The notes beneath the pieces are model-generated. The model was not told the DNA's origin, did no database searches, and saw only the letters and a program-made list of their open reading frames with translations. Position numbers and translations under genes: made by a program. This document shows, piece by piece, positions 50,456-51,785 of a stretch of 64,000 bases of DNA. Origin of the DNA: Escherichia coli (GTDB taxonomy: Bacteria > Pseudomonadota > Gammaproteobacteria > Enterobacterales > Enterobacteriaceae); NCBI RefSeq assembly GCF_965641715.1, contig NZ_OZ282453.1. One strand, 5' to 3'. Positions within the stretch are counted from its first letter, which is position 1. Every line of letters begins with the position of its first letter.

Positions 50456-50734
50456 ATGGCACGCAACGTAAAATATTACAATTCTGATAATTCGCCCGTT
50501 CTTGCCTGCACGCACGAGCGGTATTCTCACGCATTCAAGTCTGAATGGTTCCAACACCCTCCATGCACTGAAGAGCAGGCTGAATGGATAATTCAGTGTT
50601 ACTGCAGGCGCGGATACGAGGTTAAGAAAGCCCTTAGTCTCGACTACCGTCACTGGATAATCTCAGTCAGATTGCCTTACTCCGAACGCCCACCACGTGC
50701 GTCCCGCACTTTCCAGCAACGGATCTGGAGGTAA
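50456..50734 (+). CDS. small prophage protein, Rem-like
   Basis: 92-aa ORF directly upstream of and translationally coupled to the ydfU-like gene; assignment by position. Confidence 0.5.
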   Translation: MARNVKYYNSDNSPVLACTHERYSHAFKSEWFQHPPCTEEQAEWIIQCYCRRGYEVKKALSLDYRHWIISVRLPYSERPPRASRTFQQRIWR

Positions 50735-50735
50735 C

Positions 50736-51785
50736 GTGCGGGTATTACTTAGACCTGTTCTGGTGCCTGAGCTTGGGCTGGTGGTCCTTAAGCCGGGCCG
50801 TGAATCCATACAGATATTTCATAATCCTCGAGTGCTGGTGGAACCGGAACCAAAAAGCATGCGTAATCTGCCATCCGGAGTCGTTCCTGCCGTTGGCCAG
50901 CCGCTGGCGGAAGACAAAACATTGCTGCCGTTTTTTAGTAACGAACGGGTGATTCGTGCTGCTGGCGGCGTTGGCGCATTGTCTGACTGGCTATTACGTC
51001 ATGTTACATCCTGCCAGTGGCCTAATGGAGATTACCATCACACTGAAACAGTCATTCACCGTTATGGTACCGGCGCAATGGTGTTGTGTTGGCACTGCGA
51101 CAACCAACTGCGTGACCAGACATCGGAATCACTGGAGCTGCTTGCTCAACAAAATCTGACAGCATGGGTGATTGACGTCATCCGTCACGCAATAAGCGGT
51201 ACGCAGGAGCGGGAATTATCTTTGGCTGAATTATCCTGGTGGGCGGTCTGCAATCAGGTGGTGGATGCACTACCTGAGGCTGTATCGCGTCGTTCGCTGG
51301 GATTACCAGCGGAAAAAATCTGCTCGGTGTACCGCGAAAGCGACATCGTACCGGGAGAGCAGACCGCCACCAGCATACTGAAACAGCGCACAAAAAATCT
51401 TGCGCCGCTGCCTCACGCCCACCAGCAACAGAACCCACCACAGGAAAAGACGGTGGTCAGCATTGCCGTTGATCCTGAGTCTCCGGAATCTTTCATGAAA
51501 CGACCTAAACGTCGCCGCTGGGTTAACGAGAAATACAAACGCTGGGTGAAGACACAGCCGTGTGCGTGTTGTGGTAAGCCAGCCGACGATCCCCATCACC
51601 TGATTGGTCATGGTCAGGGCGGAATGGGGACAAAATCTCACGATATTTTCACGCTACCGCTGTGTCGGGAGCATCACAACGAGCTTCATGCGGATCCTCT
51701 GGCGTTCGAAGAAAAGCATGGTTCTCAGGTTGATTTAATTTTTCGTTTTCTTGATCACGCCTTTGCAACTGGCGTGCTTGGGTAA
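50736..51785 (+). CDS. ydfU: DUF968-family prophage protein (YdfU-like) with C-terminal Cys/His cluster
   Basis: Six-frame ORF 50697..51785; likely GTG start at 50736 after SD ggagg gives 349 aa; C-terminal CACCGK...HHLIGH...CREHHNELH zinc-binding/HNH-like motif. Confidence 0.72.
   Translation: MRVLLRPVLVPELGLVVLKPGRESIQIFHNPRVLVEPEPKSMRNLPSGVVPAVGQPLAEDKTLLPFFSNERVIRAAGGVGALSDWLLRHVTSCQWPNGDYHHTETVIHRYGTGAMVLCWHCDNQLRDQTSESLELLAQQNLTAWVIDVIRHAISGTQERELSLAELSWWAVCNQVVDALPEAVSRRSLGLPAEKICSVYRESDIVPGEQTATSILKQRTKNLAPLPHAHQQQNPPQEKTVVSIAVDPESPESFMKRPKRRRWVNEKYKRWVKTQPCACCGKPADDPHHLIGHGQGGMGTKSHDIFTLPLCREHHNELHADPLAFEEKHGSQVDLIFRFLDHAFATGVLG

Follow-up and report, generated by a model that had tools for sequence, protein, structure and literature searches.

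The window analysed here, a stretch of 64,000 nucleotides of Escherichia coli DNA (contig NZ_OZ282453.1), contains two closely spaced ORFs ahead of rusA and the antiterminator gene Q (Table 1). They raise two questions: whether the second, a DUF968 gene of the ydfU type, is translationally coupled to the first, and whether the Cys- and His-rich C-terminus of its product marks a nuclease. The best overall explanation, which we regard as fairly probable, is that a coupled 92-aa gene and a YdfU His-Me nuclease lie together in the nin-like region of a lambdoid prophage. The nuclease idea itself is already known for YdfU: a 2014 paper identified DUF968 as a zinc-finger HNH (PMC4118853), and YdfU was assigned to group 7 of the His-Me fingers by Jablonska et al. 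in 2017 (PMC5714182).

Table 1. Features of the ydfU region, in window coordinates
Feature	Position	Strand	Description and evidence
rem, 83 aa	50138..50389	+	PGAP "rem: protein Rem" in the identical chromosome; outside the coupled pair
Small ORF, 92 aa	50456..50734	+	Residues 1–26 are a variable N-terminal extension; core 27–92
Small ORF conserved core	50534..50734	+	Residues 27–92
Predicted mRNA hairpin	50703..50742	+	3' arm holds the Shine-Dalgarno sequence and GTG of ydfU; 5' arm within the final ten small-ORF codons
Shine-Dalgarno GGAGG for ydfU	50727..50731	+	In the final two sense codons (Trp-Arg) of the small ORF; 4 nt 5' of the GTG
ydfU, DUF968, 349 aa	50736..51785	+	GTG start; PGAP, Pfam, PHROG 96, homologues, codon-position test
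Central Cys/His cluster	51012..51104	+	Residues 93–123: C93, H101, C118, C121, then W119 and D122
Disordered linker	51420..51455	+	Residues 229–240; pLDDT <50; length varies in the alignment; between N-terminal region and HNH
His-Me (HNH) finger core	51561..51689	+	Predicted zinc ligands C276, C279, C310, H313; predicted catalytic/metal residues H288, H314, H318
rusA	51798..52154	+	Holliday-junction resolvase; Pfam RusA E 1.8e-17; PGAP; 12 nt downstream of the ydfU stop
Q	52169..52990	+	Late-gene antiterminator; Pfam Antiterm E 9e-55; next gene after the block

Gene models and the ydfU start codon

Both ORFs were found in the window sequence where they had been located earlier, and RefSeq/PGAP annotates both genes alike in a chromosome with 100% identity across 50100–52200, with the GTG at 50736 as the start of ydfU. 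The junction between them, read from the sequence, is ...ATC TGG AGG TAA C GTG CGG..., in which the stop codon (TAA, 50732–50734) is followed by a single spacer base (50735) and the GTG (50736–50738), leaving a 1-nt gap. A preliminary description of this DNA had placed the GTG four bases past the upstream stop; the start codon stands, at a distance of 4 nt or 2 nt depending on whether the first or the last base of the stop is the point of reference. The Shine-Dalgarno sequence that it had placed inside the upstream gene is indeed there. The arrangement GGAGG-TAA-C-GTG is the same in all nine Escherichia sequences compared, and ATCTGGAGGTAACGTG is unchanged across the nine, even at loci where the small ORF is just 64–71% identical. 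At the more distant locus L007 the junction is TGGAGGGACTGATG, with stop and start overlapping (TGATG). Stop and start overlap, or are separated by no more than 3 nt, at seven of the eight distant homologue loci, irrespective of the upstream gene.

A bias of variation toward third codon positions indicates that both frames are translated up to and from the junction. In the stretch from the GTG to the first ATG after it, 28 columns vary, 18 of them at codon position 3. Pairwise codon differences there, read in the GTG frame, comprise 126 synonymous and 54 non-synonymous changes, against 27/152 and 20/163 in the other two frames, which contain stops. Homologues 30–57% identical to YdfU align with it from residue 1 to residue 1, and residues 1–348 match positions 1–333 of the 334 in the PHROG 96 profile ("HNH endonuclease"). 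Judged by codon-position statistics and distant homologues, which agree, the GTG at 50736 is the correct start. Its conservation, proposed earlier as a check, extends through all nine Escherichia sequences, and no conserved upstream ATG start exists. Another in-frame GTG, at 50697, with which the mechanically called ORF begins, was rejected as the ydfU start, being missing from four of six aligned loci.

The Shine-Dalgarno sequence is separated from the GTG by 4 nt, a short spacing, and in the GenBank records of two phages, Tritos and HannyBb, the CDS begins 34 and 24 codons further on than the GTG. If ydfU were translated independently from such a later start, its nearness to the upstream stop would be incidental. 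This is extremely improbable given the strong third-position bias in the GTG frame ahead of the first downstream ATG, the conservation of the same stretch of protein in the 30–57% identical homologues, and the invariant junction.

Proposed coupling to the small upstream gene

The predicted hairpin at the junction has a folding energy of −19.3 kcal/mol (z −3.15), and none of 200 shuffled sequences folded as well, for a fold window that was picked after the structure had been seen. For the equivalent sequences at seven further Escherichia loci the energies range from −15.6 to −19.3 kcal/mol, and the 120-nt context around the hairpin does not exceed shuffled sequence in stability (z 0.10). Covariation gives the hairpin no support because its 3' arm is almost invariant, with one substitution (at locus L025), which is uncompensated.

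Stop and start lie within a few nucleotides of each other and the Shine-Dalgarno sequence lies inside the upstream ORF. The data fit a tandem, translationally coupled pair, with which a predicted hairpin burying the ribosome-binding site and GTG is compatible. Ribosomes finishing the small ORF would unwind the hairpin that hides the GGAGG and GTG of ydfU, and the same or fresh ribosomes would then initiate at the GTG, 2 nt beyond the stop. A scan for promoters and terminators found sites no more numerous than in shuffled sequence, and the only terminator-like site on the plus strand of 50008–53070 is one weak 5-bp stem inside rusA. The absence of other such sites is compatible with co-transcription, not proof of it. 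The 92-aa gene and then ydfU would be co-transcribed and translationally coupled in the nin-like (replication-to-Q) region of a lambdoid prophage.

The upstream ORF had been labelled rem-like, which is wrong: in the PGAP annotation rem is the preceding gene. BLASTP of Rem against the 92-aa protein gave no alignment at E ≤ 100, the two proteins belong to separate PHROGs (340 and 1212), and the block of small ORF and ydfU is present without rem at loci L023 and L025. When remote relatives of the small ORF were sought by profile search, Escherichia and Shigella alone were represented among the 120 matches listed, and the relative at L007 was found via genomic context, beside a YdfU that is 52% identical. 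On these sequence comparisons, the 92-aa ORF is a family distinct from Rem and almost confined to Escherichia and Shigella. It is intact yet unannotated in K-12 MG1655. NCBIfam has no model for any of the three proteins, and a fold comparison of the small protein gave no informative match. The tail of the protein (residues 75–92) is extremely conserved and is predicted to be disordered.

Such a tail resembles a binding peptide, and the small protein and YdfU might form an inhibitor/nuclease pair of the immunity or toxin–antitoxin type, in which the coupled upstream product keeps the nuclease inactive until it is needed. The tight coupling and the co-conservation of the two genes across Escherichia prophages and at L007 are in keeping with this, as is the halt in host growth caused by overexpression of the related nuclease Gp16 (PMC12817073). 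The small ORF is absent, however, at seven of the eight distant YdfU homologue loci, where an antirepressor, methyltransferases or unrelated ORFs stand upstream instead. PADLOC gave no hits and no pointer to a known defence system, the fold match was uninformative, and the conservation of the tail is also explained by its overlap with the ribosome-binding site and hairpin. We consider an inhibitor/nuclease pair unlikely.

The His-Me finger of YdfU and its relatives

YdfU matches Pfam DUF968 (PF06147) with 255.9 bits (E 2.5e-76; residues 160–346 versus profile positions 1–171 of 171), well above the gathering threshold of 27.8 bits. The AF2 model has a mean pLDDT of 89.9 and consists of an N-terminal region of about 225 residues, the disordered linker, a conserved basic stretch (KRPKRRRW...) and the C-terminal finger. 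The C-terminal motif reads C276-x2-C279 ... H287-H288 ... C310-R-E-H313-H314-x3-H318. In the model, residues 285–319 form a beta-beta-alpha unit, as in the beta-beta-alpha-metal fold, and H288, H314 and H318 supply the catalytic His at the end of strand 1 and the metal-binding His/Asn of the helix. These three histidines are retained in 32, 31 and 31 of 35 homologues, respectively, and D303 in the HNH core is invariant; three of the 35 lack the catalytic histidines.

The earlier suggestion that this C-terminus is of a zinc-binding or HNH type was upheld as a His-Me finger with zinc knuckles by the DUF968 match, PHROG 96 and the alignment with Gp16 (below), and no non-nuclease zinc-ribbon family was matched. 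From sequence and model, the C-terminus of YdfU is a genuine His-Me (HNH) finger, and YdfU is a predicted zinc-containing HNH-type DNA-cutting enzyme. The most likely activity of the domain is nicking or cleavage of DNA with the aid of a single divalent metal ion, for which H288 would serve as general base and H314 and H318 would hold the metal; the CxxC...CxxH zinc site would stabilise the finger.

Gp16 of the Staphylococcus aureus phage ΦNM1 (HNHc_6, PF16784) and Ref of phage P1 (PDB 3PLW; RecA_dep_nuc, PF16786) are the nearest characterised relatives of YdfU, and both act in a RecA-stimulated manner. The HNH core of Gp16 is 39% identical to that of YdfU over 59 aa (BLASTP E 3e-10), the two share a CxxCGKP ... 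LCREHHNExH signature, and Gp16 scores 29.1 bits against the DUF968 profile, over its threshold. Gp16 was characterised in 2026 as a RecA-dependent nickase stimulated by RecA (PMC12817073). Mutation of its C148, C181 or H184 abolished growth inhibition, and mutation of H157, H185 or H189 weakened its effects (PMC12817073). All six mutated residues are conserved in YdfU, where C148, C181, H184, H157, H185 and H189 correspond to C279, C310, H313, H288, H314 and H318. Both proteins come from the early phage region, with the rusA of ΦNM1 about 3 kb downstream of gp16.

The two differ outside the finger. Gp16 (223 aa) has a NinB/Orf-like N-terminal domain, the one expected in HNHc_6, the family of ΦNM1 Gp16 and Listeria Orf-HNH, whereas the N-terminal region of YdfU is unrelated to it and carries a separate Cys/His cluster. 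Since the interaction of Gp16 with RecA requires both Gp16 termini, a RecA interaction is not to be assumed for YdfU. Against HNHc_6, full-length YdfU scores 22.0 bits and its C-terminal domain 25.2 bits, below the gathering threshold of 26.6; by these scores YdfU is a sister family related to HNHc_6, not a member. The similarity to Ref is marginal, the C-terminal domain giving 15.5 bits (E 0.019) against RecA_dep_nuc, far short of the 26.9-bit threshold, and Ref has no large folded N-terminal region, unlike YdfU. Cleavage that depends on RecA or is stimulated by it has been demonstrated only for Ref and Gp16 (PMC3973344, PMC12817073).

Two further His-Me or HNH proteins of lambdoid phages are less close. 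YbcO of DLP12 and phage 82 (PDB 3G27; PF07102) is a 96-aa stand-alone HNH without the N-terminal region or CxxC knuckle spacing of YdfU. Lambda NinG/Rap (PF05766) is a His-Me finger recombination endonuclease of group 24 (PMC5714182), a DNA branch-specific enzyme encoded in the ninR region between P and Q (PMC4118853). YdfU gave no sequence match to PF05766; NinG/Rap is analogous to it in position and fold superfamily and lies outside the family. During early phage development YdfU probably works on intermediates of recombination or replication, as its nearest characterised relatives, Gp16 and Ref, do under stimulation by RecA. A literature search found no assays of YdfU-type proteins, and we infer nuclease activity, substrate, any RecA dependence and zinc binding.

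The central cluster lies on two strands (residues 105–110 and 113–118) and a helix (119–125) assigned by DSSP. Of the 35 homologues, 34 have C93, 34 have C or H at 101, and all 35 have C118 and H or C at 121; the four YdfU residues C93, H101, C118 and C121 probably make up a further zinc site, of a structural kind, carried by a beta-hairpin and the helix after it. An internal duplication, with the central motif CQ...C/H...LCWH(H/C)DN as a degenerate second HNH, was also considered and rejected as unsupported by sequence: hhalign of the central against the C-terminal HNH profile gave E 0.064 with a probability below 1%, and BLASTP gave E 7.9. What remains after the duplication test is the shared beta-hairpin-plus-helix topology and the four conserved ligands alone. 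No structural relatives of the N-terminal region were found, and phmmer, a profile search and Foldseek against the PDB gave nothing significant. Apparent fusions of the N-terminal region to tail-tip, tail-fibre, portal or capsid fragments were taken as assembly chimeras of prophage repeats and set aside.

Prophage context and significance

A 2.1-kb query running from rem to the start of Q has matches in 4557 of 5426 complete E. coli genomes. YdfU-type DUF968 proteins occur in most E. coli genomes, and ydfU is a widespread and well-known prophage gene, an ordinary finding in itself. The YdfU of the Qin prophage of K-12 (b1560; PF06147; His-Me group 7, PMC5714182) is of the same family and agrees in its 349-aa length, GTG start and junction. 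Its gene occupies the same place, after hokD-rem and before a Q homologue, but rusA is missing between ydfU and ydfT. RusA is also absent beside ydfU in phages Tritos and HannyBb, and at distant homologue loci it is upstream and non-adjacent or absent. Of the DNA-processing module beside RusA that had been proposed, the position in a nin-like region just upstream of Q holds, and the pairing with RusA is not fixed.

At seven of the eight distant loci, the DUF968 gene directly precedes a Q-type or Q-position gene, and three unrelated Q families are represented; at L016 one small ORF intervenes. YdfU could on this ground be a zinc-dependent DNA- or RNA-binding regulator working with the adjacent Q, its HNH fold serving as a binding scaffold only. 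Position alone is weak evidence for such a role because what lies ahead of Q in lambdoid phages is typically recombination cargo, as in the gene order ybcO-rusA-ylcG-quuD of DLP12. The three homologues that lack the catalytic histidines keep the central Cys/His cluster, and group 7 includes a protein with the annotation of a transcriptional regulator (PMC5714182). Most homologues nevertheless retain the histidines, which align with the Gp16 residues whose mutation weakens its effects (PMC12817073), and we judge a purely regulatory YdfU quite unlikely. The preferred reading remains that of a nuclease coupled to the 92-aa gene.

The GTG start and the coupling to the upstream ORF provide a basis for correcting truncated or mislabelled annotations in several phage records, and in the K-12 MG1655 reference they draw attention to an intact, conserved and unannotated 92-aa ORF. 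The strictly conserved second Cys/His cluster and the N-terminal region without structural relatives are small additions to the published picture of the protein. The 2026 characterisation of Gp16 offers the first experimentally grounded hypothesis for ydfU, a very common y-gene of E. coli. A more far-reaching idea, which we put forward tentatively and consider rather unlikely, is that YdfU-type DUF968 proteins are the enterobacterial counterparts of Gp16 and Ref as RecA-guided nickases, in which an orphan zinc-binding N-terminal domain replaces the NinB-like targeting or RecA module and the 92-aa protein is an obligate partner or brake. Ref has a reported link to SOS-related killing or antibiotic synergy (PMC4713147); if the idea is true, a latent RecA-dependent nuclease would reside in Qin and other cryptic prophages and could affect the same processes.

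Gene content of the block

Gene names were read from the PGAP annotation of an identical chromosome, NZ_CP031906, and this gene content identifies the block as the nin-like region of a lambdoid prophage. Positions 50100-52200 were matched in 4557 of 5426 complete E. coli genomes, and many E. coli chromosomes are 100% identical. Q is followed on the + strand by two tRNA genes, a layout typical of Stx-type lambdoid phages. One is tRNA-Arg(TCT); the other has a CAT anticodon, and is called Met by ARAGORN and Ile by PGAP; lysidine modification would presumably make it read as Ile.

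Features of the block and its surroundings
Feature	Position	Strand	Remarks
449-aa ORF	47673-49022	-	RefSeq "hypothetical protein"
hokD	49766-49921	+	ORF listing and sequence
Terminator-like hairpin	49990-50007	+	after hokD
83-aa ORF	50138-50389	+	rem in PGAP; ORF listing and sequence
92-aa small ORF	50456-50734	+	PGAP hypothetical protein; ORF listing and sequence
Predicted 40-nt hairpin	50703-50742
Shine-Dalgarno GGAGG	50727-50731	+	junction sequence
Small-ORF stop TAA	50732-50734	+	junction sequence
Spacer base	50735	+	between TAA and GTG
ydfU	50736-51785	+	PGAP "DUF968 domain-containing protein", 349 aa; GTG at 50736 (PGAP, junction sequence)
rusA	51798-52154	+	PGAP RusA-family resolvase; ORF listing and sequence
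Q-type antiterminator	52169-52990	+	PGAP antitermination protein; ORF listing and sequence
Terminator-like hairpin	53071-53090	+	after Q
tRNA gene	53134-53209		downstream of Q
tRNA gene	53310-53386		downstream of Q
K-12 small ORF	L013 3307-3585; NC_000913.3 1644306-1644584	-	no CDS annotated there between rem and ydfU

The two strong terminator-like hairpins flank the rem-to-Q block and share the same 7-bp stem arms (AACCCGC ... GCGGGTT) followed by a T-run. The 449-aa ORF lies on the reverse strand within the early region of the prophage. It matches over its full length the PADLOC model PD-T7-1 (E 4.2e-157), a candidate anti-phage defence protein, and also PD-T7-5 (E 1.2e-40); it has no Pfam match.

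The DUF968 gene is directly upstream of Q, or of the gene in the Q position, in seven of eight diverged homologue loci, which include three unrelated Q families; in L016 a single small ORF intervenes. Its upstream neighbours vary among loci. RusA is adjacent downstream of ydfU in the window and in five compared loci (L002, L004, L005, L023 and L025), upstream and non-adjacent in three (L010, L014 and L020), and missing next to ydfU in K-12 Qin and in phages Tritos and HannyBb. DLP12 shows the parallel order ybcO-rusA-ylcG-quuD. The proposed "DNA-processing module" thus amounts to recombination cargo of the nin region that recurs in loose association, rather than a fixed two-gene unit.

The ydfU start and its coupling to the small ORF

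The junction reads ATC TGG AGG TAA C GTG CGG. As the preliminary description had proposed, ydfU begins with a GTG just past the upstream stop (TAA C GTG, 50732-50738), and its ribosome-binding site lies inside the upstream gene, where the Shine-Dalgarno is supplied by the final two sense codons, Trp-Arg (TGG AGG). Three independent lines of sequence evidence support this GTG as the start. First, the junction, GTG included, is invariant in the compared Escherichia loci: 19 bases, ATCTGGAGGTAACGTGCGG, are unchanged across six diverged phage and prophage loci, and a 16-base core, ATCTGGAGGTAACGTG, is identical in nine of nine Escherichia sequences, which take in K-12 Qin and two loci where the small protein keeps only 64-71% identity. 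Second, in the stretch from the GTG to the next ATG downstream, the GTG frame has 18 of 28 variable columns at third codon positions, and its pairwise codon differences divide into 126 synonymous and 54 non-synonymous; the two remaining frames, which contain stop codons, show 27/152 and 20/163. Third, searching 1.84 billion cluster representatives exhaustively yielded full-length YdfU homologues (30-57% identity) whose first residue aligns with that of YdfU and which have in common the N-terminal consensus L-x2-P-x5-LG-x-V-x-LKPG; the PHROG 96 alignment also begins at residue 1. Four of the six diverged loci lack the upstream in-frame GTG (50697) that was considered as an alternative start.

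On these three lines, the Tritos and HannyBb records, which place the ydfU start 34 and 24 codons too late, respectively, are truncated. The block is annotated inconsistently in phage records (Tritos, L003 1900-2847; HannyBb, L006 1909-2886; mEp460_ev081, H16; L004 1518-1796), and in one record a "Phage antitermination protein Q" spans the junction.

The small ORF is itself translated: in its 3' part, third positions of its own frame hold 15 of the 19 variable columns. Its coupling to ydfU is well supported anatomically. In a distant homologue pair (L007, YdfU identity 52%), the small protein ends ...MWRD, and stop and start overlap within TGGAGGGACTGATG. The DUF968 gene overlaps or abuts its upstream gene, whatever its kind, in seven of eight distant loci examined (at one extreme a 10-nt overlap, at the other a 3-nt gap; in the remaining locus the gap is 150 nt). 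A hairpin is predicted to bury the ydfU Shine-Dalgarno and start codon, with CCCGCAC pairing with GUGCGGG and UUUCCAG with CUGGAGG, and its 5' arm falls in the small ORF's final ten codons. It folds at -19.3 kcal/mol (z -3.15; none of 200 shuffles is as stable) in a window chosen after the structure was seen, and equivalent sequences from seven other Escherichia loci adopt the same fold (-15.6 to -19.3 kcal/mol). The 120-nt context does not exceed shuffles in stability (z 0.10). The 3' arm varies too little for covariation to lend support, and one L025 change goes uncompensated. Occlusion of the ribosome-binding site may reasonably be inferred as the coupling mechanism.

The small protein

The upstream ORF had been called rem-like, which is incorrect: rem is the preceding 83-aa gene, the two proteins have no detectable similarity, and they fall in different PHROGs (340 for Rem and 1212 for the 92-aa protein). 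Apart from this label, the preliminary description is accurate. Residues 1-26 of the small protein are variable, and residues 27-92, the whole of phrog_1212, are highly conserved. Nearly all of its homologues come from Escherichia and Shigella, and no matches were found in Pfam, NCBIfam or PADLOC. The AF2 model is modest (mean pLDDT 68), with a beta-alpha-beta-beta core (pLDDT about 85) and two disordered tails. In K-12 MG1655 the ORF is intact between rem and ydfU, shares 91% identity with the copy in the window, and has the same coupled junction. It is possible that the small protein serves as a partner or brake of the predicted YdfU nuclease; its absence from seven of eight distant YdfU loci argues against such a role. 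ON470612 and other records label the ORF "toxin to Rem", without supporting evidence.

YdfU and its relation to known HNH nucleases

The interpretation of the C-terminus as an HNH-type motif is essentially right but already published: DUF968 carries a zinc-finger HNH motif (Curtis et al. 2014, PMC4118853), and YdfU and YbcO (3g27) belong to His-Me finger group 7, with RusA and Q noted as genomic neighbours (Jablonska et al. 2017, PMC5714182). Pfam DUF968 covers residues 160-346 (E 2.5e-76). The C-terminal 99 residues alone score 25.2 bits against HNHc_6, below the threshold of 26.6, and 15.5 bits (E 0.019) against RecA_dep_nuc. The AF2 model (mean pLDDT 89.9, 150-sequence alignment) runs from a small beta/alpha region at the N-terminus through a beta-hairpin with a helix (residues 105-125), a section of helices and a disordered linker (229-240) to a C-terminal beta-beta-alpha unit (285-319) followed by helices.

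Among 35 homologues, the C-terminal zinc ligands are kept at C276 (35), C279 (26), C310 (28) and C/H313 (26), the nine homologues without C279 having mostly lost the later ligands too. The catalytic set is kept at H288 (32), H314 (31) and H318 (31), and D303 is invariant. The catalytic histidines are lost in three full-length homologues, P0317, P0334 and P0369, which lack H287/H288, H314 and H318, retain D303 as well as the four ligands of the central Cys/His cluster, and are probably catalytically dead paralogues. A second Cys/His cluster (93-121), absent from the preliminary description, is even more conserved (C93 and C/H101, 34/35; C118 and H/C121, 35/35), is accompanied by W119 and D122, and is read as a predicted structural zinc site; its sequence lends no support to a degenerate HNH duplicate. 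Seven database proteins (P0245, P0265, P0292, P0306, P0307, P0308 and P0372) combine the N-terminal region of YdfU with fragments from the tail tip, tail fibre, portal or capsid, and are most likely mis-assemblies across prophage repeats, not real fusions.

The nearest characterised sequence relative of YdfU is Gp16 of S. aureus phage ΦNM1, and the nearest solved structure is Ref of bacteriophage P1; both are RecA-dependent HNH nucleases. Gp16 combines a NinB-like N-terminus with an HNH C-terminus; it is a RecA-stimulated nickase that binds RecA, which requires both of its termini, and its arrest of host growth requires RecA (PMC12817073, January 2026). Gp16, identified as ABF73046.1, matches HNHc_6 (E 4.9e-117) and also exceeds the DUF968 threshold (29.1 versus 27.8 bits). 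The HNH cores of YdfU and Gp16 are 39% identical over 59 residues (E 3e-10), and six of six residues mutated in Gp16 (C148, C181, H184, H157, H185 and H189) are conserved in YdfU (C279, C310, H313, H288, H314 and H318, respectively). The N-terminal region of YdfU differs from that of Gp16, the main ground for caution, since RecA binding by Gp16 needs both ends of the protein. An annotated and very common gene is present here as an identical copy, and the locus is already known; given the RecA dependence of both Gp16 and Ref, RecA-linked nicking would be a sensible hypothesis for YdfU.
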